The translations under genes and the position numbers were made by a program. Shown here piece after piece: positions 16,340 through 31,330 of a stretch of 32,000 nt of DNA. Source of the DNA: an archaeon (GTDB lineage: Archaea; Iainarchaeota; Iainarchaeia; Iainarchaeales; CSSED10-239). Under the pieces are notes generated by a model, which worked only from the letters and a program-made list of their open reading frames with translations, searched no databases and was not told where the DNA came from. Positions within the stretch are counted from its first letter, which is position 1, and the number at the start of each line of letters is the position of its first letter. The stretch is taken from positions 1-32,000 of the forward strand of contig JBAYPN010000004.1 in assembly GCA_041677685.1 (NCBI GenBank). Reading direction: 5' to 3'.

Positions 16340-16441
16340 TTTCTAGCACCAATCTTTTAAAATTTAAATTAATTGTACATTTAATTTTATTTTAAATGTT
16401 ACATTTTGTTTAAAATTACTACAATTAAATAATTTTATTTT

Positions 16442-16627
16442 CTACTCTTCAATTGTAATACACGCAACTGGACAAACATCTGCAGCCTGTCTATTACAAC
16501 CAACCTCTTTTACTTCTGTCTTGATTGGCTTTGGCTTAGCTCCAACAAACTTCCAATTTTCAGGGCAAACTGAAACACAAGCTCCGCAACCAATGCATGC
16601 CTCATTATCTTGTTTAATCTTTACCAT
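16442..16627 (-). CDS. Small 4Fe-4S ferredoxin
   Basis: 61 aa with CIGCGACVSVCP and a distal CPVAC. Confidence 0.8.
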   Translation of the reverse strand: MVKIKQDNEACIGCGACVSVCPENWKFVGAKPKPIKTEVKEVGCNRQAADVCPVACITIEE

Positions 16628-16836
16628 CCTTAAAACACTTCCTTTCTTGTTTTTGTTTTTTCACAATTTTTTTTTAATTTAAATATTCTTCAACTTAATT
16701 TTCATATCAACTATCAGATTAATATTTTCTAATAGCCTCTATCCTATAGATAGAAAATAAACAAATATATAAATGTTTCTTTTTACTTATTAAATAATAG
16801 TCTTACAATATAAAATATAATTACAAAAGTTTAATT

Positions 16837-19068
16837 ATGATAGAAAAGATAAAACCACCAAGAGGAACACCTGGTGAAATATACAAGTCAATCTCTGTTG
16901 ATTCAAGAGACTTCTCTATAGATGAAAATAAACTTTTTAAAAAAAAAGAAAATGGTTATATTCTTTTTTGTAAAAGTATTTATAAAAAATTTCCTGGACT
17001 TGGAAAAAATGGAAAGTACAATTCTGAATATAAGTCTGCAGTTGATTTTCTAAGGTGGGACCTAAAAGCAGAAGAGTATACAGCAGGTACAAAGTTTGTA
17101 TTTTTATTTGGAATACTTGCAGCAATAATTATTTCTTTTTTAATATACATGTATGGCTTAGAGTCTTTAAAATCATTGTTTGGAAACATATACATCCCCA
17201 TAATGATTACCTTTGGTCTACCAATCATAATTTTTATATACATCTTTACTACCTTTCAAAAGTACCCATTAACCCAAGTTGGTTATGAGAAAGTAAGAGC
17301 ATTGACTTTTGTTCCTGAAATTTTAGGGTATATGATAATGTCAATGAAGCTTGTACCAAACTTAGAAAAAGCAATTGAATTTGCATCCAACCATGGTCAC
17401 GGAAAAGTAGCAGATGACCTTAAAAATCTATTATGGGAAGTTAAGGTAGGAATTAAGGGAAGTGTTTCAGAAGCCCTTGATGGTTTGGCATACAAATGGG
17501 GAGAAGTCTCTGAAGAACTAAAAAAAGCTTTAATGAAAATAAGGTCTTCAGTTATTGAAATTTCAGAAGCAAAAAGATACCAAATCCTAGATCAGACAAT
17601 GGATGACACTCTAACCTCAATTAAAGGCAAGTTAGAAGATTATGCAAGAAGTCTATCTCAACCAAGCATGGTTATCTTTTACATAGGAGTTTTACTTCCT
17701 TTACTTTTAATTATTATTCTACCAATTGGTTCTGCATTTTCAGGCTCAGCTCTAGCAAGACCAATCTACCTAATCTTAATTTACAATTTTGCAATCCCCA
17801 TTGGGTGTTTAGTTTATGCAAGAAGCATAATTAGAAATAGACCAGCCACATATGTTCCTGCTGTGATTCCTAATAAACATCCTGACCTTCCTAAAAGAAA
17901 CACAATTAAAATTGGAAAATCTTCAATTAATGTTTTTTTAATAATAATTTTAGTTGTTGGAACACTTGTTATTGGTAGTCTTTTTTTACAATCTAATTTT
18001 GGAAAAACAAAATATAATGTGTTATTAAATGCAGGGTATATAAAAGAAGGAGAATCAATAACTGCTGCAGAATTTAATTGTTCAAAAGAAGAACTTGCCC
18101 TAAAAGCAGAAAATCCAAAAATATTATGTCAAGCTGAAACTGAATTTTGGCAAGACCCTGATAATGATGTAACTCCTTATTTTTTAATCTATGGTCTACT
18201 GATTGCCTTTAGTTTAGGTTTCTCATTATTACTTTATTCTCAAAGTATTTACAAAAGAAAAATTCAACTTGAGTCTGAAAGGATGGAATATGAGTTTAAA
18301 GATGCACTTTACATAATTGCAAGTAGGCTTGGAGAAAATAAACCAATTGAGGATGCCTTAGCACACACTAGGGATTTTTTATCAAAATCATTAATTTCTA
18401 AAAGTATTTTTGCAAAAGCAATTGACAATATTAGGATTCTTGGTTTTAATTTAAATTCTGCATTGTTTGATGAAAATTATGGAGCTCTTAAAAATAATCC
18501 TTCAACAATTATTAACAGTGCAATGAGGTTGATGGTTGATTCTGTACAGTTGGGGGTTTCAGTTGCTGCAAAGACTTTGATGTCTTACTCTATGCAATTA
18601 AGAAACACTGATGAAGTTACAAAGACTTTAAAAGATTTGATTAGTGGAATTACTGGAACCTTAAACAGTATGGCTAAATTTATTGCTCCGATTGTTTTAG
18701 GAATAACTACTGGTCTTCAAAAAATAGTAATCTCAACTCTAACCTCTATTTCAAATAGTGGAGCTTTACAAGAAGTAAGTTCAGCAATTGAAGGTGTAGG
18801 AACTGCAATTGGAGGCACAGTAAACACAGCAAGTATTGAGGGCATGGCAACAATTGATCCAGCAACAATAGCACAACTTGCAAGCTCTACAACTTTTTTG
18901 ATAATTGTTGCAATTTATGTAATTGAGATTGTTATTATTATAACTTACTTTACAACAATGATAGAGGAAGACAACCTTGTTCTTGCTAAACTAAAGATTG
19001 CAAAAACATTACCAGTTGCAGTTATTTTGTTTATCTTAACAACTATCTTTACAAATATGTTATTTTGA
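16837..19068 (+). CDS. FlaJ/TadC/PilC-like type IV pilus platform membrane protein with two T2SS-F-like domains
   Basis: Two soluble helical modules (VPEILGYMIMSMKLVPNLEKAIEFASNHGHGKVADDLKNLLWEVKVGIKGSVSEAL, and YEFKDALYIIASRLGENKPIEDALAHTRDFL...NIRILGFNLNSAL). Each is followed by TM bundles. The gene sits directly upstream of the pilin genes. Confidence 0.6.
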   Translation: MIEKIKPPRGTPGEIYKSISVDSRDFSIDENKLFKKKENGYILFCKSIYKKFPGLGKNGKYNSEYKSAVDFLRWDLKAEEYTAGTKFVFLFGILAAIIISFLIYMYGLESLKSLFGNIYIPIMITFGLPIIIFIYIFTTFQKYPLTQVGYEKVRALTFVPEILGYMIMSMKLVPNLEKAIEFASNHGHGKVADDLKNLLWEVKVGIKGSVSEALDGLAYKWGEVSEELKKALMKIRSSVIEISEAKRYQILDQTMDDTLTSIKGKLEDYARSLSQPSMVIFYIGVLLPLLLIIILPIGSAFSGSALARPIYLILIYNFAIPIGCLVYARSIIRNRPATYVPAVIPNKHPDLPKRNTIKIGKSSINVFLIIILVVGTLVIGSLFLQSNFGKTKYNVLLNAGYIKEGESITAAEFNCSKEELALKAENPKILCQAETEFWQDPDNDVTPYFLIYGLLIAFSLGFSLLLYSQSIYKRKIQLESERMEYEFKDALYIIASRLGENKPIEDALAHTRDFLSKSLISKSIFAKAIDNIRILGFNLNSALFDENYGALKNNPSTIINSAMRLMVDSVQLGVSVAAKTLMSYSMQLRNTDEVTKTLKDLISGITGTLNSMAKFIAPIVLGITTGLQKIVISTLTSISNSGALQEVSSAIEGVGTAIGGTVNTASIEGMATIDPATIAQLASSTTFLIIVAIYVIEIVIIITYFTTMIEEDNLVLAKLKIAKTLPVAVILFILTTIFTNMLF

Positions 19069-19199
19069 AAATATATATTTGAAATTTAAATTATAAGGTT
19101 AGGTTTAGGTTATAAAAAATAAAAAATTAATAATTGAAAAAGAAAGATAAAAAGAATTATTCAAAATAATTGAAAAAAAATTATAAAAAGAAAGAGAAT

Positions 19200-19703
19200 A
19201 TGAAACTTGTAAAACATACAGAGAGAGGACAAGCCTTTGAAGTTTATAGACTATTGATTGCATTTATCATAGCTGTAGCTGTTATGTCAATCATTATTGT
19301 TATGGTTCAAAAAACAAATAAAGAATCAATTCTTTTAAGTTATCAAAATTTAGAACAAGGTTTTATCTCTGCAACTAAAAGTCCTGGGACAAGTAGTAAA
19401 ATGCCTTTTGTTATTGAGGATCTAAAATTGAAAGGAATGATAACTAAAAAAAAACTTTCAACAATTAGTGGACTTAAAGAAGAATGTATTATCTTTGATG
19501 CAGGACCAGGAATTGAAAAAACAGATATTGGTGTTGAGATTAATAAGATTTTAAAATTTGATACAACAGTTTATTGTAATTTTGGAAATGTTGATATTTT
19601 AGAAACTCCAATTATTCAGTTGTTAGAAAATAATACCCTTGAGAATTGCCCAGTATATTGTATAGTCTTTATGAACAAAAATCCAAAAGATATTTATCCA
19701 TAA
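19200..19703 (+). CDS. Archaeal type IV pilin-like protein (class III signal peptide)
   Basis: MKLVKHTERG|QAFEVYRLLIAFIIAVAVMSIIIVMV. Four Cys in the C-terminal domain. The track start at 19170 is TTG, so I chose the ATG at 19200. Confidence 0.65.
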   Translation: MKLVKHTERGQAFEVYRLLIAFIIAVAVMSIIIVMVQKTNKESILLSYQNLEQGFISATKSPGTSSKMPFVIEDLKLKGMITKKKLSTISGLKEECIIFDAGPGIEKTDIGVEINKILKFDTTVYCNFGNVDILETPIIQLLENNTLENCPVYCIVFMNKNPKDIYP

Positions 19704-19773
19704 AATTTAAAATAAGAATTAAAAACTATAATTATAAAAATAGAATCTAAAAAAAATAAAATTGAAGAAATTT

Positions 19774-20277
19774 ATGTTAAAAAAGAAAAACATTTTTAGT
19801 AAATTAAAATATCTAATAATTGCAATTATAATTTTAGTTCTTGGTTATTTTTTTGGGATTATTATTCTGTCAGTAATTGCAATAATAATTGTTTTAATTT
19901 CTATATTTTTTATAATCAGTTTGTTTTTTAGTAAAAGTCTATTAGCTTTAACAAACAGAAAGGTAAGATTGTTTATTGCTATGATCTTTTCAGGAGCTTT
20001 AAGTTATCTAATAATATATTTGTTAAGAAATCAGATTTTTAAAATTTCTTCTCAAGTTACACAAATAATTTTAATTTGGGTAATTGCTACACTGATGTTT
20101 GGAACATTATGGAATATTCTTGTAATTAGTAAAAGGAGAGTGTATTTAAAGGATAATGTTATAGATTATAATAAGATTGGAGAAAATAGAAATTTAAAAT
20201 TTAGAGATTTTGTTTTTATTTTAGTAATTCCAACAATAATCACTTTAATTTTTAATGTTCTTTATGTTGTTATTTAA
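19774..20277 (+). CDS. Hypothetical polytopic membrane protein embedded in the pilin cluster
   Basis: About 5 hydrophobic segments. The ATG at 19774 is preferred over the TTG at 19762. Confidence 0.45.
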   Translation: MLKKKNIFSKLKYLIIAIIILVLGYFFGIIILSVIAIIIVLISIFFIISLFFSKSLLALTNRKVRLFIAMIFSGALSYLIIYLLRNQIFKISSQVTQIILIWVIATLMFGTLWNILVISKRRVYLKDNVIDYNKIGENRNLKFRDFVFILVIPTIITLIFNVLYVVI

Positions 20278-20282
20278 ACAAG

Positions 20283-20322
20283 ATACATTTAAATATGTTT
20301 TGTCTTAAATTTTAAATATAAT
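20283..20322 (+). promoter_or_regulatory. 40-bp block with two tttaaata TATA-like boxes; putative promoter of pilin copy A
   Basis: Identical 40-mer atacatttaaatatgttttgtcttaaattttaaatataat is repeated at 21280-21319, in both cases upstream of a pilin start. Confidence 0.5.
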
Positions 20323-20378
20323 ATTAAATTTTAAAATCTAAAAGTTAATGTTTATATAATAAAAATAATATTTATTCT

Positions 20379-20384
20379 AGGAGG
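20379..20384 (+). promoter_or_regulatory. Shine-Dalgarno-like AGGAGG
   Basis: aggagg lies 8 nt upstream of the ATG at 20393. Confidence 0.6.
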
Positions 20385-20392
20385 AAAATAAT

Positions 20393-20950
20393 ATGTCAAA
20401 TTTAATTAATCAAAAAGGTCAAGCTTTTTCAACCTTTCAATTATTAATTGCAGCTGTAGTTGCTTTAGCTTTACTTGGTGTTCTAATGCCAATTATCATG
20501 GGTAACTTTTCAATAGGTAAAAGTCCAAGTGATTCTGCACAACAATATGCAAAAACACAAATTAATAATGCTGGTAGTTTAAATTACACAGACACATTAA
20601 AATTTAAAAAAGATGATTCAATCTCAGCAACAGGTGTGGCTGATGGAATTGATGTAGACAGAGACCAAGTTTATGTAGTAGTTCCAACGGATCTAATTGG
20701 TAACACATTTAGTGATCCTAGTACTTCAAGTTATAAACAAACAAAATATTTAAAGAGTACAAAAGCAGATTACAAAATTGGTGTTATTTGTGATTATAAA
20801 GAAAGTATAGAAGTAAGTTTAGGATATAATGGTCTTACTGGTGGACCAAATAATGAAGATGATTTTTTCTCAATAATTAAAGATTTAGATGATTTTAAAG
20901 ATCTTGACAATAGCATAAAAGTTTGTATCCTATTTCCAAAGAGAGGATAG
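20393..20950 (+). CDS. Archaeal type IV pilin, candidate major pilin (copy A)
   Basis: MSNLINQKG|QAFSTFQLLIAAVVALALLGVLMPII. It has its own promoter-like block and the strongest RBS in the cluster. Confidence 0.7.
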   Translation: MSNLINQKGQAFSTFQLLIAAVVALALLGVLMPIIMGNFSIGKSPSDSAQQYAKTQINNAGSLNYTDTLKFKKDDSISATGVADGIDVDRDQVYVVVPTDLIGNTFSDPSTSSYKQTKYLKSTKADYKIGVICDYKESIEVSLGYNGLTGGPNNEDDFFSIIKDLDDFKDLDNSIKVCILFPKRG

Positions 20951-20990
20951 TAACTTATAAAAAATATAATTTAGAAAGAAGAGAAATATT

Positions 20991-21197
20991 ATGAATAAAA
21001 TAAAATTAAAGTTTAAAAGTATCTTAGAGGATAACAAAGCTCAAGCAGAGTCAAACAGTATCTTCTTTCTAATTATAATTGCTATTGTTGCAGTTGTCCT
21101 AATTGCAATTGTAAAACCAATGTTTAACAAATCAGTTAAAGCCTCAGCAAAACAAGCAAACCTCCCAAATCAAGGTGTTACCCAACCTTTAAAATAA
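20991..21197 (+). CDS. Mini pilin-like protein, 68 aa
   Basis: EDNKA|QAESNSIFFLIIIAIVAVVLIAIV followed by only about 27 residues. Confidence 0.45.
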   Translation: MNKIKLKFKSILEDNKAQAESNSIFFLIIIAIVAVVLIAIVKPMFNKSVKASAKQANLPNQGVTQPLK

Positions 21198-21213
21198 GCA
21201 TAAATGTATAATA

Positions 21214-21245
21214 TCAATTACAATTTACTTTTATAAATTATTTTA
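21214..21245. repeat. 32-bp block tcaattacaatttacttttataaattatttta, repeated at 21910-21941
   Basis: Exact match read directly. It marks the 3' boundary of both duplicated units. Confidence 0.85.
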
Positions 21246-21279
21246 ATTTTTAATGTCTTATAAAAATTATACATCTAAA

Positions 21280-21319
21280 ATACATTTAAATATGTTTTGT
21301 CTTAAATTTTAAATATAAT
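21280..21319 (+). promoter_or_regulatory. Second copy of the 40-bp TATA-like promoter block
   Basis: 40/40 identical to 20283-20322. Confidence 0.5.
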
Positions 21320-21347
21320 TATATTAATATAAAAAAAGAGAATAAAT

Positions 21348-21904
21348 ATGTTAAATTTAATAAATCAAAAGAAAAGGGCCTTTCAAACTTCCAAATATTT
21401 ATATTACCTATAATGATTTTAATTTTACTTTCTTTTTTAATTGCAGTATTACCTGTAAGTCCTGACCCTAAGTTGAAAAATATAAATTTAGTTATAGAAC
21501 ATTCCATAAAAGCACAAATTAATACTACTGGTAGCTTAGGTTACACAGACACATTAAAATTTAAATATAAGGATTCTATTTCTGCAACAAGTTTGACTGA
21601 TGGACTTGATGTAGACAGAGATCAAGTTTACGTAGTAGTTCCAACGGATCTAATTGGTAACACATTTAGTGATCCTAGTACTTCAAGTTATAAACGAACA
21701 ATATATTTAAAGAGTACAAAAGAAGATTACAAAATTGGTGTTATTTGTGATTATAAAGAAAGTATAGAAGTAAGTTTAGGATATAATGGTCTTGCTGGTG
21801 GATCAAATGATGAAGATGATTTTTTCTCAATAATTAAAGATTTAGATGATTTTAAAGATCTTGACAATAGCATAAAAGTATGTATCCTATTTCCAAAAAG
21901 ATGA
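21348..21904 (+). pseudogene. Pilin paralog (copy B) interrupted by a frameshift
   Basis: The ATG at 21348 reads MLNLINQKKRAFQTSKYLYYL then stop. The frame of ORF 21413-21904, read upstream, gives ...KSKEKG|LSNFQIFILPIMILILLSFLIAVLPV. Removing one copy of the aaaag/aaaag duplication at 21367-21376 gives MLNLINQKG|LSNFQIF... in frame to 21904. Confidence 0.6.
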
Positions 21905-21909
21905 TTGTT

Positions 21910-21941
21910 TCAATTACAATTTACTTTTATAAATTATTTTA
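21910..21941. repeat. Second copy of the 32-bp boundary block
   Basis: 32/32 identical to 21214-21245. Confidence 0.85.
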
Positions 21942-22012
21942 TTTTCATAAAATATTTAAAAACACTAAAAATCAAAAAGCTTTTTAATTACTTCTTTTTA
22001 TATTTAAGTATT

Positions 22013-22618
22013 ATGCAAAAGATATTATCCACAATCAAAAAAGATAAAGCACAAGTAAGTGCTCCCTTTGAACTACTGGTTGCAATTATTGTTATGGCCT
22101 TTGTTATTCTTGCAGGAACCTATGCCCTAAACAACCTTTCAGAAAACACATGCCTTGGAAATAAAAGACAAAACTTTAGCGAACTTGTAACTGCCTTAAG
22201 AGATGTTACCTTAGGTTCAGATTTAACTTACAGAGATGTAGATTTTAGAACAAAGGCTTGCTTTAATGAAAAGTATGAGTTTGTGCAACTAAATACTTAT
22301 GAAGACTCAGGTAAATGTAGTGCCTACTGTGGAACAGGTTCTAATTGCCTATTACTTGAATATAAATATCAAAAAGATGATGATTATAAATACCCAATAG
22401 AACCAATCTGCACACATCTTCCCTCAACTGTTAACTTTGCAACTAAACTTTCAGAATGTGGGGACGAAGATATACTTGAAGAAGATTATATGATAATAAA
22501 TCCAAAAGGGCTAACAAAAGATAACCAAGGAAACATCCCCTTAGGTAGATATAAGATTTACAGAGCAAATCAAGAGAGTGCAAGCACGACTGTTATTTGC
22601 CTTCTTAAAAAAAAGTGA
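22013..22618 (+). CDS. Cys-rich pilin-like protein (class III signal peptide)
   Basis: MQKILSTIKKDKA|QVSAPFELLVAIIVMAFVILAG. About 9 Cys in the C-terminal domain. The TTG extension from 21905 was rejected. Confidence 0.6.
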   Translation: MQKILSTIKKDKAQVSAPFELLVAIIVMAFVILAGTYALNNLSENTCLGNKRQNFSELVTALRDVTLGSDLTYRDVDFRTKACFNEKYEFVQLNTYEDSGKCSAYCGTGSNCLLLEYKYQKDDDYKYPIEPICTHLPSTVNFATKLSECGDEDILEEDYMIINPKGLTKDNQGNIPLGRYKIYRANQESASTTVICLLKKK

Positions 22619-22626
22619 AATAAGAT

Positions 22627-23307
22627 ATGTTTGAATTTACCTTATCAAAATTAAATTTATTAATCTTTGTTACAGCAATAGCAGCAATTATGCTATTTTT
22701 TCTAAACACAGTAAATGCAAATTTAAAAACAAGACAAAGTTTTGAATTAACCTACAAGATTGGCAAAGAGCTAAAATCAGGGATTGATGGAAAAAGTTAC
22801 TGCTCCATAAAATATATAAAAATTCCAAAAACAATTAAAACTAATCAAGGCTCTTCAAACATATTTAATATAAATTATAAATTTAATATTGCACAATATG
22901 ATTATGAAAATCCCAACATCAATTCTTCACTTAACAAAAAACTAATAATTGCAATTACTGATCAAAAAAATAAAAAGATCTATGCAGCCTATGATATTGA
23001 CTTTGAAGGAAACTTTACTTTCTATGAATCAGAATATGATTTAGATACTGGAAAATATAACTTTCTAGAAAAAAAAGATGTAGGGATCTATGATCCTCTA
23101 AAAGTAAAAAGTATAGACACAACTCTTTTGTTTATTAAAAAAATAAATAATGGAAAATTAGATTACTACATTATACCTTGTGAGAAAAAAAATTCAATAT
23201 ATTCTTGTAAAGATTTTGTATGTAACAATGATGATGGATTATTTGATGATATTACCTGTAAGGATGTAGAGTTATGCATTACCGACGTAGGAGAAAATAC
23301 AACATGA
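22627..23307 (+). CDS. Pilin-like / N-terminally anchored protein
   Basis: MFEFTLSKLNLLIFVTAIAAIMLFF. The leader is very short and has no G/A-Q site. Several Cys near the C-terminus. Confidence 0.45.
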   Translation: MFEFTLSKLNLLIFVTAIAAIMLFFLNTVNANLKTRQSFELTYKIGKELKSGIDGKSYCSIKYIKIPKTIKTNQGSSNIFNINYKFNIAQYDYENPNINSSLNKKLIIAITDQKNKKIYAAYDIDFEGNFTFYESEYDLDTGKYNFLEKKDVGIYDPLKVKSIDTTLLFIKKINNGKLDYYIIPCEKKNSIYSCKDFVCNNDDGLFDDITCKDVELCITDVGENTT

Positions 23308-23837
23308 TATTTAAAAAAAGAGAAAAGGGTTTTATTGGGGCAATTGGTGATGACCTACCAAGCCTTATTCCAATTTTTATTGGTTTAATTATCTTTTTTT
23401 CTGTATTTTTAAGCACATACAATCTCTATAAAGATAAAACAAATCTCTATTCTTTAGAGCAAGAAGCAGTTATAATTTCTTTAACTCTAAAAGAAGAACC
23501 AATAATTTCAAGTTATGAGATCTTTCAACATCAATGTGATTTAGTAAACACTAACAAAAATTGGACAGCTTTTGTTACAGACTTAGATCTAAATTCAGAT
23601 AATCACAAACCCATAGACACCTCTGATATAGAAAATTCAATTGTTGCTTTTATAGATGAGGTTTCAAATGATAAAAACATTTTTATCTGCAACAATAAGT
23701 TTAAAGACAAAGTCTTAGACACACAAGATAATTTTTTTCAAACACAAAATAGAAAGATAGTATACATGTTTCCAATAACCTTACAAGAAGACAACTTTGC
23801 AAAGACTAAAAAATTATATGTAATTGTTTGGGAGTAA
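23304..23837 (+). CDS. Pilin-like protein (class III-like signal)
   Basis: MIFKKREKG|FIGAIGDDLPSLIPIFIGLIIFFSVFL. ATGA start/stop overlap with the upstream gene, and GGAG 11 nt upstream. Confidence 0.5.
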   Translation: MIFKKREKGFIGAIGDDLPSLIPIFIGLIIFFSVFLSTYNLYKDKTNLYSLEQEAVIISLTLKEEPIISSYEIFQHQCDLVNTNKNWTAFVTDLDLNSDNHKPIDTSDIENSIVAFIDEVSNDKNIFICNNKFKDKVLDTQDNFFQTQNRKIVYMFPITLQEDNFAKTKKLYVIVWE

Positions 23838-23844
23838 AATAGAT

Positions 23845-24609
23845 ATGATACCAATTATTAAAAATAAAAAAGCACAAGCAGCAATCACAGATGCTTTATT
23901 TTTCTTAACAATAATTGTGACCTTAGCAGTTATTCTCTTTAAGTTTTCTGCAACCTATGGAGACAGAGTTACTCTTGCAACAAACAATCTTTACTTTAAA
24001 GAATACTCCAATTCTGCACTAAAAACTATCTTCTATGCAGAAATTCCTCTTGACTTTTCAAAAGAAATTAGTTCTTCAAAAGAAACAGACTACCTAATGA
24101 CTGCAATTAAGGAAGATTATTTCTCAGATATGCAGATTGGAAGTTCAAAAGATATTAACACCATGATGATAATTAATAATTCAGATATCTCCAAATATAA
24201 TCTTTATAATCTCATTAAAGTTGTAATGAAGCCTTTACCAAATTATGACTATATGTTTTATCTATACAACACTAATGATTCTAAATTTGAATTTTTTACC
24301 TTAAAAGTTACAAACTTTGATTATGAGAAAGCAGTGTTTCCTCATCAACTAGACATTAATGCAACAGATTCAAATTATTATCTTTGTGATCCTCTAAGTT
24401 ATGCAACAATTAGGGATAGTTTTTCTGAGATCAGTGACATCTACTCTTCTTCAATTCCATTACAGTTTCCAGTTACTATTGGAGATAGAGACACAATCAA
24501 CATGACAGCAACATTTGCGATTTGGCCAGCATCAGTAACATTAACCAAAACAGATGAAGAGAATAACAACATAATTAGTAACTTTAAATGTAAAGCTTAC
24601 ACAGACTAA
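23845..24609 (+). CDS. Pilin-like protein (class III signal peptide)
   Basis: MIPIIKNKKA|QAAITDALFFLTIIVTLAVILF. GGGAG RBS upstream. The ATG at 23845 is preferred over the track start at 23824. Confidence 0.55.
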   Translation: MIPIIKNKKAQAAITDALFFLTIIVTLAVILFKFSATYGDRVTLATNNLYFKEYSNSALKTIFYAEIPLDFSKEISSSKETDYLMTAIKEDYFSDMQIGSSKDINTMMIINNSDISKYNLYNLIKVVMKPLPNYDYMFYLYNTNDSKFEFFTLKVTNFDYEKAVFPHQLDINATDSNYYLCDPLSYATIRDSFSEISDIYSSSIPLQFPVTIGDRDTINMTATFAIWPASVTLTKTDEENNNIISNFKCKAYTD

Positions 24610-25358
24610 AACTTTAAACCCAAGCCATCATCAGAATTATCAATTTCAAAATCATCTAATTCTTCGTCTTTTAAAAGATCTTTAATATCGTCTTCTTTCT
24701 TTCTAGTCTTTGATTCTTCTTTCTGTTTTACTTTTTTATTTTCAGAGTCTTTTTTAATTTCTTCTTTTTGCCTATCTCTTTTAGATCCTTTTTTAGAATC
24801 TTTTTTACTTTCTTTGTCTTCTTTACTTTTAATTTCTTCTTCTAGTTCTAGATTTTTTTCTTTAGAGACTTTATCTTTCTTCATCTGGTCTCTAATATCA
24901 TTTGATTCAACTTGAGAATAAACATCTTCAACTAAATTTCTTAGATCTTCTTTATTTTCATTAATATTTAAATTTTCTTTTGATCTATTTTCTGAAGCCC
25001 TATAATGTCTATTTGTCTTAATTGCACTTTCAATTTTATTTTTTTCAACATCTATATTTTTATTTTTTAATTGTGTGTAAATAGCCTCTGCAATTACATT
25101 AACATCTGGTTTTATCATTTCAGAAAGGTTAGTTAATATCTTATTAATAATTATTGCCTTTTCTTCATTGTTAACAACTTTAGTTTTTTTATCTTTTTTA
25201 AAGTCAAGATTTTCTAAAGTAATTTCACTATTATCAATACTATTATAGTTATCTTTTTTCTTAGAAGTTATATCAGGCTGAGAAGTATAGACTATCTCTC
25301 CATCCTTATATTTTCTATAATGTCTTCTTTCTCTTCTACTTAGCTTGTTATTATCCAT
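24606..25358 (-). CDS. Hypothetical highly charged (K/E/D-rich) protein with an acidic C-terminal tail
   Basis: 250-aa ORF of low complexity (KEDKESKKDSKKGSKRDRQKEE...), ending DDFEIDNSDDGLGLKF. Confidence 0.45.
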   Translation of the reverse strand: MDNNKLSRRERRHYRKYKDGEIVYTSQPDITSKKKDNYNSIDNSEITLENLDFKKDKKTKVVNNEEKAIIINKILTNLSEMIKPDVNVIAEAIYTQLKNKNIDVEKNKIESAIKTNRHYRASENRSKENLNINENKEDLRNLVEDVYSQVESNDIRDQMKKDKVSKEKNLELEEEIKSKEDKESKKDSKKGSKRDRQKEEIKKDSENKKVKQKEESKTRKKEDDIKDLLKDEELDDFEIDNSDDGLGLKF

Positions 25359-25399
25359 AATGTCTTCTTTCTCTTCTACTTAGCTTGTTATTATCCATA
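25317..25399. repeat. Perfect 40-bp tandem duplication (2.07 copies) spanning the start codon and first 13 codons of the 24606-25358 gene
   Basis: Positions i and i+40 are identical for i = 25317-25359, read directly. Confidence 0.9.
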
Positions 25400-25525
25400 T
25401 TTAAAATATTCCATTTATAAACATTTATATTATATACAATATATATTATATAATAATGCTTTTAAATGTTTCAATTTATATATATTATAGATTTTAATTA
25501 AAAATAAGATAAGAAGATCAAAACT

Positions 25526-26026
25526 ATGGAAAATAATATATTTCAAATAATACTAAATTATGTTTGGTTTATAATCAAATTGTTATTCTATGCTTTAATT
25601 TTAGCAATACCTCTTACATTAATAACTCTACCTTTAAGGAATTGGTTTTTAAAAATTAATAAAAAAATTGAAAATTTCTTATTTAGTTCTTCAATTATTA
25701 CTTATGTTATTAGCTATCTACTGTTGTTAGCATTCTACTTTATACCGATCATAAATTCAGGTTCTTTTCAAACAACAGATAAGTTATTGATTTTTATTTT
25801 AATCCACATAGTAAGGCTTGCAATTATTAATTTACTAATAACAGCAATAATTATTATCTTTATATTTATAATTTTATTTATTTATGAAAAGTTTAATAAA
25901 AATTCTAAACAATTTAATTTCTTTAATTTATGGAAAAGTACAGCTATAGGTTTAATTATTTTTTTCATAATTATAATCTTATTTCCAAAATTAATAGCTA
26001 TGTTAATATATTTAATATTTGTATAA
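25526..26026 (+). CDS. Hypothetical polytopic membrane protein
   Basis: 166 aa, 4-5 hydrophobic segments. It ends 18 nt upstream of the giant ORF. Confidence 0.45.
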   Translation: MENNIFQIILNYVWFIIKLLFYALILAIPLTLITLPLRNWFLKINKKIENFLFSSSIITYVISYLLLLAFYFIPIINSGSFQTTDKLLIFILIHIVRLAIINLLITAIIIIFIFIILFIYEKFNKNSKQFNFFNLWKSTAIGLIIFFIIIILFPKLIAMLIYLIFV

Positions 26027-26044
26027 ATAATAGGATGAGTTTAC

Positions 26045-29000
26045 ATGAAGTTTGAAAAGAATGTCTCAAAGATAATATCAATATTTTTTTTAATTCTATT
26101 TATAAATAGTATCTTTGCATATAATGTGGATTTTTCAAGATTTGACAACCCCACAGAAAGTGCAAACAATTTCTATTTACTAGATTCTGATATTAAAACT
26201 GACTTTGGAGGTGGTTGTTATACTGAAGAACTTCCTTCAGATGCAGTTGAAAGGATTTGGAATGAGTTGTTGGTTAAAGGTTTTAAAGTAGACATAGTTT
26301 CTTCAGACCAACCAGCAAAAACAGATAGAGACTCACTTGAAAAAAGTGATGTGATGCTAACAAACCAGGATAGTAAGGGTGGAGACATCATCATGAAAAA
26401 AGAAATGCCTTCCCAAGAAATGGATCCTTTAGAGATTCCAACTATTTTAGGTCAAAGCTGTTATGGTCCATTTTCATATGGTATTAATTTGACAGAAACA
26501 ATTAGGATTGGAAAATGTGAAAATGATACTAATTCTGCATGTTATCTAGAAAGTGATGGACTCTTTAGACAAAATGGAAATGAAGGCTTTTGGACAGAAA
26601 TGGAAGCTGTTGGTAAAGATGTTCTTGACATGGTTGGAGTAAATATTTTAAAACAGGAAGCAGGAGAAATAATTAACCCAGACTATGATTATAATACAGA
26701 TGTTGATCTAGGAATCTTTACTGAAATGTCCTATGAAGAGTTAGCTTTTTTTAAAAGTATACAACTAGATGATGCAAATAAAGACACAATCAATTTAGAA
26801 AGAACAAAAGCAATCATGGACAAAGCAATTCAAAATAGTGTAAAAACAGAAATTTTTAATTCAGGAATGGAGACAACCTGTAGTGGTGAAAATTGTTATA
26901 TTAATGTGTATTCTTTGTTTGATAAAATGTTTAATCAGTTTTTCTCAGCAGACCTTGTAGCAACTTCAGTCTCACCTTTACTATGGAAATTCTCTTCAAG
27001 AATTTTTTCAGGAATTGGAAATGTTGCAAAAAAGCAATTTGGAATTGAGTCTGCTGGTCAAAAGTTATTAAAGAATGGAACTATTAAGAAAGGTCACTTT
27101 TGGGATAATGTTCTAAACAATAATAATAGTCCTATGAAGGCTCTTAAAAAAACTATGGATATTAGAGTTGCAGAAAGAAATATTGGAAGATATGCAGATA
27201 ACCTTTCTTCAAGTTATTCATCTATTGAAAAACAACTAAACAGATATGATCTAAAACCACAATTTGAAAAATATCTAAAATCTTTAAAATCAAAAAAGAA
27301 TATTGAAGAGATCACAAATGAATTTTTTAAGTCTGCGGAGTTTACAAAATTAAACAAACCCCAACAAAGAATCTTCTTTGAAATTGCTCAAAAGTATCAA
27401 ACAAATTTAAAGATCACACAAATTTTCCAAGAACAATTAGGTAAAGATATTGATGATATTTTGAGTGCAACAACAACTGTTAGAGGTGCATCAATTCCAA
27501 GAAAAGATATTCTTTCAAACTCCAAATATACTTTAGATGATTTTTATAGATCTTTGACAAAAGAAGAATATGAGACTCTTCTTTCTAAACAGCAAAAAAT
27601 GAATCAACTAAACAAAAGTTGGGGAGATTACACTAACGGTCATGTTTCTTGGGATGATGGTGTAGAAAATTTAAATGTAGTTAAGAATAGAAGTTTTACA
27701 ATTCATAATCCAGCAACTGGAGAAGATGAACTAACACTTATTAACAAAGTTAAAAAATTAGATCAAACAATTCCTGGTAGCTTAGGAGAACTGCCAGCAG
27801 GAAGTAAAGCCTTAGTCCCAACAGACCCTACAAAATCTATAGGAACAGGTTTTGACAAAATGGCACAAACCAAAAAAGTAACAGTTACCTTCTCAGATGG
27901 ATCAACAGCAGAAATCACAAAATTGATTCCATATAAAGAATCTGAAATCTCAAGCATTGGACAACAATTCTTTGCAAGTGATTTACCAAAGTTCCAAAGT
28001 AGACCTGACATCTATATTGAATATTTATCAAAAAGTGGAGCTACAAAAAAAGTAAGAGCAACAAACCTTATAGTTGATGATATTGATCAAGTAGGCAGCT
28101 TAAAATGGTTTTCTGTAGATGATGTTGCGATGTTGACTGATGATGAAATTATAAAATATGGTTATGATCCTTTTGAACTTGCTTATGGTTACTCAACTAC
28201 AAAAGGAACAGGAATTATAAAAACTATGGATGCTGTTAATGACAAGGTTGTAAAGGTTATGGAAGACCAAGGTTGGGTAACAGGAAGGGGAGTTAACTGG
28301 ATTAACCAACAAATGAAAGCTCAAGACACGTCCTCTTACCAAAAGAAAGCATTTAACATGTTAACACGTAATGGACAAGCATATATAAAAAATTGGGTTT
28401 ATTGGGAAGTTCAGACAGCAGGAAATACTCTTCCATTTATTGGAGATACTTTCTCTAAATATAGTATGTATCAATTACCAGAAACTTACACTTCTGTAAA
28501 AATAGATCACCAACTTTCAGGAGAAATCTACAATGATTCATATATTGATTTCTTTGTAAACACAGGTTCTGATCAAGGGGACCTTTTTATGCAATACCTT
28601 AATTCCATGGTTTTCTGGTTAGTAAATATTGGAAAAGAAGTCTTAGACGAAACTGACTGGAAAGCAACTCAAGCAATAAGCGATTGGGGTAAGCAAATAA
28701 CAGAAGGGCAAATAAGAAGAAGCTCAGTAGATGATGTTGCAGTCTTTACAGATGGTGAGAACGGAGGTTGTGATAAGGCTTGCTCAATTAAAATAGGAAA
28801 TTCTCAACTCTTAGAAAAAACAACTCTTGAAAAATCCCTAAAAACAGACACCAATGTGGAAAATCAGACACCAATGCCTCAAAAGTTAGAAAAAGTAAAC
28901 ATCATTTACAGTACCCCAAGCGGAATTACAATTCCAAATTATATTCTTGAAAATACTGATCCAAAGAACATAGAAGAAGAAGGACAAACATTAATTTCTT

Positions 29001-31045
29001 TCTCACACCATACAGATTATTCAGGATCACTGGCTGGTAAAAACACAAAGGATGCAGACAAAGTTAATTTGATTACAGCAATTGAAAATGAAGAAACCTG
29101 TTCAGCTAAGATAAGAGACTTAGAAGTTTTAGGAGTACCAATTGGTTTTACAACAAGCTGGACTGGTAAAAATTATAGAGCAGGTCTTGTTGCAGCAACC
29201 TACACAACTCTTGCTTACACTGTTCTGTCAGCCCCACAACACAGAATTTTACTTGGAACAATTTTTGGTGTGCTTATCCCTCAAAGTCTAATAATCCCAC
29301 AAGTCCACAATTGTGTAGATGATGAAGAAGGTTATTACACCCACATCTTTGTTTCAAAAGAAGAATATGAAAGAATAGAAAAAGATCCAAAAAACAAAAT
29401 TGGAGACTTGATTTCAAAAGGTGCAGAAGGTATTGAACAAAAAATAGAAGGAGTAACCAAAGGCACACAACTAGAGGAATCTGTTAAAAAAACAACACAA
29501 GATGTTAAGCAATTTGCAGAAACAAAAATGAAAGACAACCCAATTGTTCAAGCAAGATTTGAAACAAAAGGAAATTCTTCAGCCTCAATTAATGGTAGAC
29601 TGTTCTTCTTAGAGCTTGGAAAGAATACCACTTGTAGGGCAAGTGCATATAATGACAAGGGTGTAGAGTACTTAAAGAATAATCAATTAAATGAAACATT
29701 AATTATAAATAAAGAAAATGGAACCTTAGATATTCTTGATTCAGATGGCACTCTTAAAAACATAATTGATAGTAAAAACAAAGACTGGGTCAGATTAATG
29801 GCTACAAATTTAGGAATTCCAGCAAAGGTTATTCCCCACAGCCTAAGTTACATCCCACTTCCTGATGACAACTCTCCTTTGTTTACAATGGATATTTATG
29901 GAAATCTTTCAATTGAAAATATGAGCTTTTTAGATTGCTTTAGAAAAAACTATGAGGCACAGACAGGTTTAGAGTTAAGAGGTAATCAATTAACAGACAT
30001 CTTAGGTAGTGTGAAGATGGCAACCACCACAAACCCACTTAACCCTTCTACTCAATATGACATGATACCAAAAGGTAAAGACAATGTTAATGAGATTCTG
30101 GCAGAAGGAGTCCCAAGAAAGTCAGCTCAAGGCAATTCTGCAAAGATGACAATCTTAGGAGACAGATACACAAAGTTATACCCAGTTAATAATAAAGAAG
30201 AGACTTTTGGTCAAAATATCTCAATTCAATTTGAAAGAGGTCAGTTGATCTATAATGGGGAAAAGAATAGTTACATCCTTTGGGTTGAACAAACCTACTC
30301 CATGCATCAATCTGAAATTGGAGGGCTAAACACTTCTGTTAAAAAATACACAAATCCAGAAACTGGTTGTGAAGAGTTTGCACTTGGCTTTAGTGTTAAC
30401 CCTGTAGAGAATAATGAAGATGCAAAAAATAAATCTAAAGAAATGAACAAAGCTTTAGAAAAGGTAGGTCCTTTCCAATTGTTTGAAACTGCAACAAAAA
30501 CCTTCATATTTTATACAACTCCTGCTCCTGAGTGTGAGAAGAGAATGAAGATTATTGATAAGCTTACAGGAAAGGTAATAACTGACCAAGCAATTACAGA
30601 CATTATTGAAACCCCAAATGGAATGATTGTTAAGACTGCTGATGGGGCTGAACATAACTTTGAGTTTAGTGCAGAAGATGGAGTCCCAAAATTAAAATAT
30701 AATGATGAACTTGAAACCTTACTTTCTGCTCAAGGTAAAAATGGATCCTTTTGGTATGACCCTGCAACTGGTAACTGGTATACAGAGAATGGACACCTTA
30801 TCCCTTTTGACCCACAATATAAGGATGGAATGATGTTTAAAACAGGAGAGGATGGTAAAGTTTATGGAACTCCTGCAGAAAACCCCATGAATATTAACAT
30901 AGGAAGTTCAGGTTCTGAGAAAAGTGGTTTTAATATACCATTGTCTCCAGAAAAAGTTATTCCACTATCTTTATATTTGTTCATAATCATAATGTCAATA
31001 ATGTATATAAACAACAGAAAAGGGAATATAAAAAAAGAGAAATAA
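26045..31045 (+). CDS. Giant (1666 aa) secreted, C-terminally membrane-anchored surface protein of unknown family
   Basis: Sec-type signal MKFEKNVSKIISIFFLILFINSIFA|YN. C-terminal TM VIPLSLYLFIIIMSIMYI followed by the basic tail NNRKGNIKKEK. At least 15 N-x-S/T sequons and locally paired Cys. Confidence 0.75.
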   Translation: MKFEKNVSKIISIFFLILFINSIFAYNVDFSRFDNPTESANNFYLLDSDIKTDFGGGCYTEELPSDAVERIWNELLVKGFKVDIVSSDQPAKTDRDSLEKSDVMLTNQDSKGGDIIMKKEMPSQEMDPLEIPTILGQSCYGPFSYGINLTETIRIGKCENDTNSACYLESDGLFRQNGNEGFWTEMEAVGKDVLDMVGVNILKQEAGEIINPDYDYNTDVDLGIFTEMSYEELAFFKSIQLDDANKDTINLERTKAIMDKAIQNSVKTEIFNSGMETTCSGENCYINVYSLFDKMFNQFFSADLVATSVSPLLWKFSSRIFSGIGNVAKKQFGIESAGQKLLKNGTIKKGHFWDNVLNNNNSPMKALKKTMDIRVAERNIGRYADNLSSSYSSIEKQLNRYDLKPQFEKYLKSLKSKKNIEEITNEFFKSAEFTKLNKPQQRIFFEIAQKYQTNLKITQIFQEQLGKDIDDILSATTTVRGASIPRKDILSNSKYTLDDFYRSLTKEEYETLLSKQQKMNQLNKSWGDYTNGHVSWDDGVENLNVVKNRSFTIHNPATGEDELTLINKVKKLDQTIPGSLGELPAGSKALVPTDPTKSIGTGFDKMAQTKKVTVTFSDGSTAEITKLIPYKESEISSIGQQFFASDLPKFQSRPDIYIEYLSKSGATKKVRATNLIVDDIDQVGSLKWFSVDDVAMLTDDEIIKYGYDPFELAYGYSTTKGTGIIKTMDAVNDKVVKVMEDQGWVTGRGVNWINQQMKAQDTSSYQKKAFNMLTRNGQAYIKNWVYWEVQTAGNTLPFIGDTFSKYSMYQLPETYTSVKIDHQLSGEIYNDSYIDFFVNTGSDQGDLFMQYLNSMVFWLVNIGKEVLDETDWKATQAISDWGKQITEGQIRRSSVDDVAVFTDGENGGCDKACSIKIGNSQLLEKTTLEKSLKTDTNVENQTPMPQKLEKVNIIYSTPSGITIPNYILENTDPKNIEEEGQTLISFSHHTDYSGSLAGKNTKDADKVNLITAIENEETCSAKIRDLEVLGVPIGFTTSWTGKNYRAGLVAATYTTLAYTVLSAPQHRILLGTIFGVLIPQSLIIPQVHNCVDDEEGYYTHIFVSKEEYERIEKDPKNKIGDLISKGAEGIEQKIEGVTKGTQLEESVKKTTQDVKQFAETKMKDNPIVQARFETKGNSSASINGRLFFLELGKNTTCRASAYNDKGVEYLKNNQLNETLIINKENGTLDILDSDGTLKNIIDSKNKDWVRLMATNLGIPAKVIPHSLSYIPLPDDNSPLFTMDIYGNLSIENMSFLDCFRKNYEAQTGLELRGNQLTDILGSVKMATTTNPLNPSTQYDMIPKGKDNVNEILAEGVPRKSAQGNSAKMTILGDRYTKLYPVNNKEETFGQNISIQFERGQLIYNGEKNSYILWVEQTYSMHQSEIGGLNTSVKKYTNPETGCEEFALGFSVNPVENNEDAKNKSKEMNKALEKVGPFQLFETATKTFIFYTTPAPECEKRMKIIDKLTGKVITDQAITDIIETPNGMIVKTADGAEHNFEFSAEDGVPKLKYNDELETLLSAQGKNGSFWYDPATGNWYTENGHLIPFDPQYKDGMMFKTGEDGKVYGTPAENPMNINIGSSGSEKSGFNIPLSPEKVIPLSLYLFIIIMSIMYINNRKGNIKKEK

Positions 31046-31078: not shown

Positions 31079-31330
31079 TTACTCAATTCTTGTAAAAAAA
31101 TCTATTTTTTTTAAGTCTAGAGGTTTTTTAGGTTTCTCTTTTTTTTTTTCAATTTCTTTTCTTCTAGTCTCAATTTTTTGTCTTCTAATTTCAATTTCTT
31201 TTTTTAATTTTTCAGCATTTGTTTTTGAAGTATCTAAATTTGTTTTTGATTTTTTTACTGTGGGTTTTTTTACAGATGGTGTTTTTGGTTTAAAACAAAA
31301 TACTTTTCTTTTTAAAGGTCCCATACTCAA
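31079..31330 (-). CDS. Hypothetical small Lys-rich protein
   Basis: 83-aa ORF, very basic and low in complexity. The coding status is uncertain. Confidence 0.3.
   Translation of the reverse strand: MSMGPLKRKVFCFKPKTPSVKKPTVKKSKTNLDTSKTNAEKLKKEIEIRRQKIETRRKEIEKKKEKPKKPLDLKKIDFFTRIE

Follow-up and report, generated by a model that had tools for sequence, protein, structure and literature searches.

A candidate type IV pilus-like locus and a linked family of giant secreted proteins in Iainarchaeota

Why does an archaeon of the Iainarchaeota keep a gene for a giant protein of 1666 amino acids (aa) at the end of a tightly packed run of genes for small pilin-like proteins, and what might these genes make together? 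The question is raised by positions 16837-31045 of a 32-kb window, the whole stretch of DNA that was analysed, which is densely coding and has a G+C (guanine plus cytosine) content of 27%. The best explanation, which is given a probability of about 0.6, is that the region is the pilin, platform and accessory half of an Iainarchaeota type IV pilus-like system. The giant protein would be a dedicated adhesin or receptor-binding module of that system, or a collar for it in the envelope.

Archaea of the DPANN group are mostly uncultured, and the means by which they contact hosts or surfaces are largely obscure. The locus provides a conserved parts list for the Iainarchaeota, with related loci in metagenome-assembled genomes (MAGs) labelled Micrarchaeota. 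The list consists of an ATPase, a single-gene platform, two PilA-like pilins, a mini-pilin, four minor-pilin-like proteins, three accessory proteins, the giant family and a linked archaeosortase. It yields annotation rules for several protein families that are now labelled 'hypothetical'. Most noteworthy are the giant family, the putative new sorting signal that its members carry, and the way in which a pilus ATPase is coupled with an archaeosortase.

Order and parts of the block

The block from 16837 to 31045 holds 13 genes and has a coding fraction of 95%. It begins with a 743-aa polytopic protein, after which come small plus-strand genes in a row, separated by short gaps or overlapping. It ends with a single minus-strand gene (24606-25358), the gene for a 166-aa membrane protein and the 1666-aa open reading frame (ORF). 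All ORFs of the original prediction were found again at the same positions. The block encodes a PilC/FlaJ-like platform, seven intact pilin-like proteins and one frameshifted copy, two small polytopic membrane proteins, a cytoplasmic Lys/Glu-rich protein and the giant. In the list below, an arrow marks the presumed cleavage site, and the basis of each assignment is given in brackets.

16837..19068, plus strand: putative platform, PilC/TadC/FlaJ-like, 743 aa, single-gene type (hydrophobic segments, hhalign, ATPase adjacency in relatives)
19170..19703, plus strand, likely true start ATG 19200: PilA-like pilin, paralogue 1, ..TERG↓QAFEVYRLLIAF (class III motif, one N-terminal transmembrane segment)
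19762..20277, plus strand: small polytopic membrane protein, 171 aa, clade-specific (4-5 hydrophobic segments)
20393..20950, plus strand: PilA-like pilin, candidate major pilin, ..NQKG↓QAFSTFQLLIAAVVALA (class III motif, two invariant Cys)
20991..21197, plus strand: mini-pilin, 68 aa, ..DNKA↓QAESNSIFFLIIIAIVAVVL (positional and N-terminal conservation)
21348..21904 (ORF 21413-21904), plus strand: frameshifted tandem duplicate of the 20393 pilin (blastn)
22013..22618, plus strand, ORF listed from TTG 21905: minor-pilin-like protein 1, ..KDKA↓QVSAPFELLVAIIVMAF (N-terminus conserved in six orthologues, and in distant loci too)
22627..23307, plus strand: pilin-like protein 2, leaderless, MFEFTLSKLNLLIFVTAIAA... 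(hydrophobic helix from residue 1 in all orthologues; colinear in distant loci)
23274..23837, plus strand, likely start ATG 23304: minor-pilin-like protein 3, ..REKG↓FIGAIGDDLPSLIPIF (motif and orthologue conservation)
23824..24609, plus strand: minor-pilin-like protein 4, ..NKKA↓QAAITDALFFLTIIV (motif and orthologue conservation)
24606..25358, minus strand: Lys/Glu-rich protein, cytoplasmic, soluble, accessory (N-terminal motif RRERRHYR)
25526..26026, plus strand: small polytopic membrane protein, 166 aa, encoded just before the giant (about four transmembrane segments)
26045..31045, plus strand: giant secreted protein, 1666 aa (Sec signal, C-terminal transmembrane segment and basic tail)

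Searches of Pfam and NCBIfam with every ORF of the block, 50 pilin-like orthologues and 28 giant homologues gave no match to a known family above threshold. The parts were therefore assigned by other means, namely profile-to-profile alignment, conserved motifs and gene order. In what follows, related loci are referred to by numbers with the prefix L.

The sequence of the 743-aa protein identifies it as a probable single-gene platform of the PilC/FlaJ type, on the basis of its alignment to T2SSF proteins and of the ATPase gene that adjoins it in relatives. It has about 9-10 hydrophobic segments. In hhalign, residues 137-292 match bona fide T2SSF proteins with a probability of 88-92% and expect values (E) of 6e-7 to 3e-6; a second repeat at around residues 478-629 is marginal (35%, E 4e-4). 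The reference proteins for these alignments were the T2SSF-positive proteins of a second filament system in L004/L005. A profile search of the Protein Data Bank (PDB) sequences gave nothing significant. Orthologues are 43-69% identical and adjoin an ATPase in L004, L005, L007 and L008, and about 200 residues are invariant over five sequences with identities down to 43%. The FlaJ/TadC-like platform that had been predicted here is thus supported by hhalign.

The second filament system is of a different type and lies close to the first, at 16679-19917 and 24103-24320 in L004 and at 19625-22131 in L005. Its two T2SSF platform genes are separate, and its T2SSE ATPase begins with a 4Fe-4S (Fer4) domain at the N-terminus. 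In L004 an A24 prepilin peptidase belongs to it as well.

In the products of six genes of the block, a K/R-G/A cleavage motif precedes a hydrophobic helix. The motifs are RG↓QAFE (19170), KG↓QAFS (20393), KA↓QAES (20991), KA↓QVSAPFE (21905/22013), KG↓FIGAIGDD (23274/23304) and KA↓QAAITD (23824). These N-termini are not random, because they are conserved in orthologues from six other loci. They are near-invariant even where the orthologues are otherwise 23-50% identical; examples are KGQAAITDALFFL and KG(F/Y)IGAIGDDLPSLIP. Together with the leaderless helix of pilin-like protein 2 this makes seven intact pilin-like proteins, and the frameshifted copy is an eighth, in agreement with the seven to eight pilin-like or class III N-termini first proposed.

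The products of 19170 and 20393 are paralogues with two invariant Cys in common. The 19170 pilin has orthologues in L001, L002 and L006. The 20393 type is found right after the platform gene in most related loci, which makes it the candidate major pilin; its best match among PDB sequences is the archaellin 5o4u, which is non-significant (E 0.14). The mini-pilin is kept at the equivalent position, with a length of 57-79 aa, in all loci compared, and the gene for minor-pilin-like protein 4 closes the plus-strand pilin run in every locus.

The duplicate at 21348 shares 93% nucleotide identity with the 20393 gene over 401 nucleotides of the globular domain (85% aa identity). The N-terminal part is only 70% identical, with a one-nucleotide gap. 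The start at ATG 21348 (MLNLINQK) is out of frame with the class III-like segment (EKG↓LSNFQIFIL), owing to a one-nucleotide indel in a run of A. The copy is either a pseudogene or a homopolymer error of the assembly. The difference between 93% and 70% identity suggests recent gene conversion. Duplication of the PilA-like pilin is recurrent, as L007 has two tandem PilA-like paralogues that are 45% identical.

Three accessory proteins accompany the pilins. Orthologues of the 171-aa membrane protein occur only in the window-type loci L001, L002 and L006. Those of the 166-aa protein lie directly 5' of the giant gene in L001, L002, L005, L006, L007 and many ATPase-anchored loci. Neither protein matches a family in Pfam or NCBIfam, in agreement with their earlier description as polytopic membrane proteins with no recognisable motif. 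The 166-aa protein was also considered as an archaeosortase and rejected, as it lacks Cys and does not resemble the archaeosortase-like genes described below.

The minus-strand gene encodes a protein with no transmembrane segment and no Pfam match. Its motif is RRERRHYR in the window and (I/V)PRR(L/M)RRFYR, i.e. PRRxRRFYR, in distant loci. An opposite-strand gene with this motif, in one form or the other, is found at the equivalent position in L001, L002, L005, L006, L007, L020, L022, L024, L033 and L035. The view that the region encodes almost entirely envelope proteins is correct for most of its genes and fails for this cytoplasmic product. Distant loci have an extra minus-strand membrane protein of 215-626 aa with an LRVGWPxIR motif, which is absent from the window.

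Gene order in related loci

Are the giant gene and the pilus genes linked, or are they mere neighbours? In the close relatives L001, L002/L003, L006 and L084 the complete arrangement is kept, including the flanks. The order is AP endonuclease, ferredoxin, platform, pilins, minus-strand gene, small membrane protein, giant and tRNA synthetase, and the giants are 38-55% identical. In the window clade the block from platform to giant is thus flanked by a ferredoxin gene and by a gene for a class II (Lys/Asp-type) tRNA synthetase, which in the window starts at about 31540, downstream of the giant gene. These close loci alone are no proof of a functional linkage, because the flanking housekeeping genes are conserved too.

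Distant loci have different flanks. L004, L005 and L007 share the platform, the PilA-like pilin, the mini-pilin, the four minor-pilin-like genes, the minus-strand gene and the giant, and the small membrane protein is present in L005 and L007. The giants of L004 and L005 are about 30-34% identical to that of the window. A scan of genome contigs with the pilus ATPase found 75 loci, from MAGs labelled Ca. Iainarchaeum (including Ca. I. andersonii SCGC AAA011-E11), Micrarchaeota, Forterrea and Aenigmatarchaeota. By tblastn, the colinear set follows the ATPase in about 25 of them, and platform and ATPase are adjacent in about 48. Recurrence of the gene order was counted in more than 40 related loci altogether. 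Six ATPase loci with a flank long enough (L011, L012, L013, L016, L025 and L040) were found to have the giant.

The order from platform to giant is therefore kept where giants are only 27-60% identical and the flanks differ. Because it persists in distant loci with different flanking genes, the giant is, judged by gene order, linked to the pilus machinery itself and not only to its neighbourhood. The synteny between giant and pilin cluster proposed as a test of the original prediction was accordingly found both in close relatives and in L004, L005, L007, L011-L013, L016, L025 and L040.

In the divergent loci L035, L043 and L052, the giant's slot after the motif-bearing minus-strand gene is occupied by a large ORF with a signal peptide. 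The L043 protein has weak similarity to the N-terminus of the giant. The L052 protein, from a Micrarchaeota genome, was rejected as a homologue since no similarity was found.

The same comparison decides whether the block is an island, as it had been called. Its G+C content (0.22-0.36) is not distinct from the remainder of the window, and block and flanks are syntenic in relatives. The block is a vertically inherited core locus and no acquired island.

In L004, L005 and L007, a T2SSE ATPase of 762-773 aa directly adjoins the platform on its upstream side. In L001, L002, L003, L006 and L084 there is no ATPase within up to 10 kb on either side of the block. Conversely, an ATPase with no platform in the downstream sequence, which in most cases spans several kb, is found in L027-L030, L032, L039 and L081 and in the metagenomic loci L088, L089, L091 and L095. 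The ATPase is followed there by unrelated genes, and most of these loci also have the archaeosortase gene. Most of the platform-less ATPases cluster in a neighbour-joining tree, and one of the loci, L039 ('Ca. ainarchaeum sp.'), has 27% G+C, the same as the window. Since related low-GC genomes show platform loci without ATPase as well as ATPase loci without platform, the simplest reading is that the operon was split in the low-GC sub-lineage of the window and that ATPase and archaeosortase are encoded elsewhere. The platform had been described as an orphan. This is accurate locally, as the window has no ATPase, and does not apply to related lineages, where the ATPase is the immediate upstream neighbour.

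Alternatively, the locus could be a decaying remnant, in which an orphan platform and its pilins became non-functional after loss of the ATPase. The lack of an ATPase in the 32-kb window and the frameshifted pilin copy are what such decay would produce. However, the other 12 genes are intact and align over their full length at 33-69% aa identity among six window-type loci (the window, L001, L002/L003, L006 and L084). The platform has kept its roughly 200 invariant residues, and the platform-less archaeosortase-ATPase loci of related low-GC genomes are expected for a split yet functional system. A remnant is thus highly improbable, and a working pilus-like system divided between two loci is preferred.

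Some of the ATPase loci have further features of their own. Orthologous pilus ATPases of about 1270-1290 aa contain an intein, for instance in L008 (839-4711), P0076, P0098, P0118, P0160 and others. The intein carries a LAGLIDADG homing endonuclease (PF14890, PF14528) and is placed inside the T2SSE domain. In three platform-less loci, a protein of 2955-2985 aa is encoded just past the archaeosortase gene (L029 74-8941, L032 241-9117 and L081 68-9010, all on the minus strand). It has an N-terminal transmembrane anchor (MISEKLAGFYTKLEDKYFD...) and lacks the C-terminal signal of the giant. L007 encodes in the corresponding area a 2695-aa protein with CarboxypepD_reg/SpaA-like matches. L081 also encodes, near the ATPase (16371-21014, minus strand), a 1547-aa protein with a signal peptide, a C-terminal transmembrane segment and a KKKK tail, for which tblastn found no homology to the giant.

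The giant protein and its C-terminal signal

What kind of protein is the giant? From the N-terminus, it consists of a Sec signal, a Cys-rich N-domain and a variable region of helical and beta structure. These are followed by a conserved middle region, a beta-rich and possibly propeller-like C-domain, a Gly/Ser linker, and the motif FNIPLSPE with a transmembrane segment and a Lys/Arg tail. The Sec-type signal (..NSIFA↓YN) and the C-terminal transmembrane segment with its basic tail are conserved in homologues, so that the predicted Sec signal and C-terminal anchor are both present. An internal transmembrane hairpin at about residues 1047-1088 was rejected; the hydrophobic stretch noticed there is not conserved as such, and many homologues have polar residues in its place.

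Residues 1-310 and 780-1640 are highly conserved, residues 320-780 less so. Each of the 14 Cys is kept in at least 26 of 28 sequences. The invariant motifs are DxYxDFF..GSDQGDLF, FSHHTDY and CVDDEEGYYTH, the latter two in the middle region. A word-index search found 28 homologues at 27-60% identity, all of them annotated as 'hypothetical' and, where named, assigned to 'Candidatus ainarchaeum sp.', 'Diapherotrites archaeon' or 'archaeon'. These names put the window in the phylum Iainarchaeota (Diapherotrites) of the kingdom Nanobdellati/DPANN. With residues 780-1640 as the query, an exhaustive profile search extended the family to 206 representative clusters (50% identity), of which 109 have E <= 1e-30. 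Among the full-length matches, nearly all have 1,200-1,730 aa and are aligned at their C-terminal end; giants that accompany the pilus system have 1,400-1,770 residues. The family is sizeable but unnamed.

No Pfam, NCBIfam or PDB sequence match was found for the giant, whether the search was made with the single sequence, with a profile, or with each of the 28 members. The structure was modelled with AlphaFold2 from the alignment of 28 sequences, residues 780-1640 and 26-790 separately. The first model has a mean predicted local distance difference test (pLDDT) score of 63 and contains a confident all-beta part at about 1260-1580 (pLDDT 85-93), with strands in fours. In the second (mean pLDDT 60), only about 360-745 is confident, being helical with some beta structure. 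Foldseek found no PDB fold or viral-library match for the N-terminal part, the best being the HRPV-2 VP5 spike (E 0.07, probability 0.14). A reading of the giant as a fusogen or viral spike was dropped, as no significant fold match was found in the PDB or the viral library. On the whole, the original view that neither the giant nor the pilin domains belong to a recognised family is upheld: profile and structure searches gave no S-layer, housekeeping envelope or other family.

Could the giant be an S-layer-like or main envelope protein, or a collar through which the pilus crosses the envelope, lying near the pilus genes through shared envelope biogenesis and with no role as an adhesin? Its Sec signal, large ectodomain, acidic isoelectric point (4.97) and C-terminal transmembrane segment with an archaeosortase-type tail are hallmarks of S-layer glycoproteins. 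The S-layer glycoprotein of Haloferax and its enzyme ArtA are the established case of these hallmarks combined with an archaeosortase-type tail. The giant family is also present in most of the related genomes examined. A large C-terminally anchored protein of Thermoproteales pilus loci was taken as S-layer-like by Makarova et al. (PMC4858521), and for such proteins a possible role in priming the wall has been suggested, to the benefit of the filament (bioRxiv 10.64898/2026.04.22.720090). However, neither Pfam and NCBIfam nor the sequences and folds of the PDB gave an S-layer match. N-glycosylation sequons are about as frequent as expected (19 observed, about 18 expected), and the model is helical with a compact beta domain instead of a chain of Ig-like domains. 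The tight linkage to pilus genes across lineages with differing flanks would be unusual for an S-layer gene. This explanation is unlikely, if quite conceivable.

Another possibility is a pseudopilus or competence-like device for the uptake or secretion of DNA or other substrates, in the manner of Com pili, the type II secretion system or the Sulfolobus bindosome. The giant would then be an anchored cargo or enzyme, with FSHHTDY and CVDDEEGYYTH forming a metal-dependent catalytic site. The order of ATPase, platform and PilA-like pilin followed by four to five minor pilins resembles the layout of the ComG and Gsp operons. The invariant His, Asp, Glu and Cys clusters of the middle region would suit a catalytic site, and several transporters are encoded in the window. 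DPANN genomes are metabolically reduced and depend on imported building blocks. Against this, searches of the region revealed no domain of a nuclease, a ComEC-like protein, a hydrolase or a binding protein. The middle region has no structural match and is modelled with low confidence, and nothing anywhere in the window ties the locus to DNA uptake. Such a device appears quite improbable, and a surface module that works with a pilus remains the preferred reading of the giant.

The C-terminus is the most distinctive part of the giant. A Gly/Ser-rich linker leads to the motif [FL]N[IL]P[LS]xP[EQ], then to about 20 hydrophobic residues and a K/R tail, and this tripartite signal is present in 27 of the 28 homologues. 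Among ORFs of at least 100 aa in all loci examined, it occurs only on giants and on one partial Micrarchaeota ORF (L062). It was matched by no curated CTERM model (PGF, PEF, VPXXXP, PEFG, Heimdall and others). The best scores were those of PEFG-CTERM (E 0.013; 15 bits against a cutoff of 25) and Heimdall-CTERM (E 0.15), mainly over the transmembrane part.

A candidate enzyme for this signal is encoded in 41 loci, where a divergent gene upstream of the ATPase encodes a membrane protein of 160-235 aa of the exosortase/archaeosortase family. Its invariant motifs LCTG..E, FN..RI and HD.LFR match the sites at which exosortases and archaeosortases have their Cys, Arg and His. All five copies tested passed the NCBIfam model TIGR04178, and none passed a model of a named subtype. 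By its sequence, FNIPL(T/S)PE followed by a transmembrane helix and a Lys/Arg tail looks like an undescribed archaeosortase sorting signal. Because the tail is nearly exclusive to giants and the archaeosortase gene is linked to that of the ATPase, the giant is likely to be a dedicated substrate of the linked enzyme, as far as its anatomy and the gene linkage indicate.

The coupling can be carried further. The locus could encode one composite surface machine, in which a filament system is coupled to a mini-archaeosortase with a single substrate, an 'IPLxPE-CTERM' giant that serves as a lipid-anchored and possibly membrane-active host-contact module. If true, this would provide a molecular handle on the interaction of DPANN archaea with other cells, but so specific a proposal is distinctly unlikely to be right in full.

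Proposed mechanism, known systems and neighbouring genes

How would the parts work together in the pilus-like system favoured here? The steps of machine, peptidase and fibre are proposed by homology to characterised type IV pilus systems, and those of the giant from its anatomy and context. The platform would dock a hexameric T2SSE ATPase, which in the low-GC clade would be encoded elsewhere, beside the small archaeosortase gene. A prepilin peptidase, encoded outside the window, would cleave the K/R-G/A leaders of the pilins, and the fibre may be built from the two PilA-like pilins. The mini-pilin and the four minor-pilin-like proteins would act as a complex in priming or at the tip, like GspH-K, FimU-PilVWX and ComGD-GG.

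The giant would be exported by Sec and fold outside the cell with about seven disulfides. The archaeosortase would recognise the FNIPL(S/T)PE motif, transmembrane helix and basic tail, and a lipid or the transmembrane segment would hold the giant at the cell surface. The anchored giant would cooperate with the pilus, most probably as an adhesin or receptor-binding module, or else as the envelope collar of the filament. The output of the locus would be attachment to surfaces or to other cells. We infer the adhesin role from this arrangement; attachment of an episymbiont to its host, as first suggested, is speculation. If the giant is a contact module, it could become a marker for predicting the specificity of interactions in Iainarchaeota and their relatives.

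Several results count against this explanation. On the side of the machine, the platform falls below the Pfam T2SSF cutoff (E 1.5e-3) and is likewise below threshold in three of five orthologues. None of the block pilins or pilin-like orthologues (n=50) matched a Pfam pilin model. The window, including the 16.8 kb upstream of the platform, has no T2SSE ATPase, and neither an A24 prepilin peptidase nor an archaeosortase gene was found among its ORFs. Searches of proteins and of genome and metagenome contigs with pilus ATPases, among them those of L005, L081 and the low-GC L039, found no contig or assembly shared by an ATPase and a window-type locus, and neither did look-ups of P0005 and P0118. 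The synteny of close relatives extends to housekeeping genes, so that only the distant loci carry weight.

On the side of the giant, no adhesin, lectin, Ig or vWA domain was found, and model confidence is low for both conserved regions that bear the invariant His, Asp and Cys motifs. The nearest PDB folds of the C-terminal part are propellers (tricorn, WDR91 and Kelch) at E 1e-4 to 1e-2 and a template-modelling score of at most 0.15, and self-alignment with hhalign found no internal sequence repeats in the beta domain. Because of these poor scores and the missing repeats, the C-domain can be called propeller-like only tentatively. A Pfam match to the PorZ beta-propeller in one of 28 members was treated as chance. 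Finally, a C-terminal anchor is ill-suited to a place at the pilus tip; since the giant carries a C-terminal transmembrane or sorting signal, a tip location is unlikely. Of the original proposal, the pilus machine, the pilin battery and the linked giant surface protein are thus supported by motifs, hhalign and synteny, and the giant as a classical tip adhesin is not.

Known systems resemble the locus in part. Archaeal 'system 2' loci are described as combining one platform gene and a long ATPase with membrane proteins, with several pilins, some of which lack a class III motif, and with large proteins that are adhesin-like or PilY-like (bioRxiv 10.64898/2026.04.22.720090). The present loci are like them, and like Makarova clade-2-type loci such as the Haloferax volcanii pilB3C3 adhesion pili, in the long ATPase of orthologous loci, the single-gene platform, pilins with and without class III signals, small membrane accessory proteins and a large adhesin-like protein. 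This likeness to system 2 is drawn from the published description. Unlike in system 2, the pilins have no Pfam pilin match, the organisms belong to DPANN and not to Euryarchaeota, an archaeosortase is linked to the ATPase, and the operon is split in the window clade.

PilY1/PilC tip adhesins and the archaeal DUF2341 proteins, which are PilY-like and found in clade 1 pilus loci (PMC4858521), offer a second comparison. Like them, the giant is a large, putatively Sec-exported protein encoded after a minor-pilin block, with a beta-rich C-terminal domain whose best, though weak, structural matches are propellers. Unlike them, it has no sequence similarity and no vWA or DUF2341 domain in any of 28 members (Pfam, NCBIfam, PDB), and it has a conserved C-terminal transmembrane or sorting signal, which PilY1 lacks.

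The tail of the giant is comparable to those of ArtA-type substrates (PGF-, PEF- and VPXXXP-CTERM), in which a short Pro motif, a transmembrane helix and a basic tail also follow a Gly/Ser linker and an archaeosortase-family gene is linked. It differs in that FNIPL(T/S)PE falls outside the curated CTERM models and in that the enzyme, with 160-235 aa, passes only TIGR04178 and has apparently one substrate in the locus.

The large C-terminally anchored 'S-layer-like' proteins of Thermoproteales type IV pilus loci (PMC4858521) provide the last comparison. Those of clade 4G (Makarova et al. 2016) are also large, with conserved Cys and a C-terminal transmembrane segment, and lie inside a multi-pilin locus. 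They differ from the giant in lineage, and the predicted fold of the giant is poor in Ig domains; the two are likened by description, not by homology.

The idea that type IV pilus loci of archaea encode large adhesin-like or S-layer-like proteins is thus not new. Papers on DPANN MAGs usually mention just that 'type IV pili are present' (PMC8561730). No description of the giant family, its C-terminal signal or the link between archaeosortase and pilus ATPase was found in the literature searched, an absence that is no proof of novelty.

The left half of the window contains ordinary housekeeping and transport genes. They encode a FAD oxidoreductase, an ArsR-type regulator, an SDF symporter, an AI-2E transporter, CorA, a xanthine/uracil permease, a U32 peptidase, a PolB-exonuclease-like protein, an F420-ligase-like protein, AP endonuclease 2 and the ferredoxin. 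Between the giant gene and the tRNA synthetase gene, an 83-aa ORF (31079-31330, minus strand) is extremely rich in Lys. The PolB-exonuclease-like gene (10656-11234, minus strand) encodes a stand-alone protein of 192 aa, the sole domain of which is a PolB-type 3'-5' exonuclease or RNase H-like domain (PF10108, PF03104). The 397-aa protein of the F420-0:gamma-glutamyl ligase family (13651-14844, minus strand) is aligned to a Pfam model of 218 positions that is stretched over residues 14-395, which implies a large insertion or a duplicated architecture.

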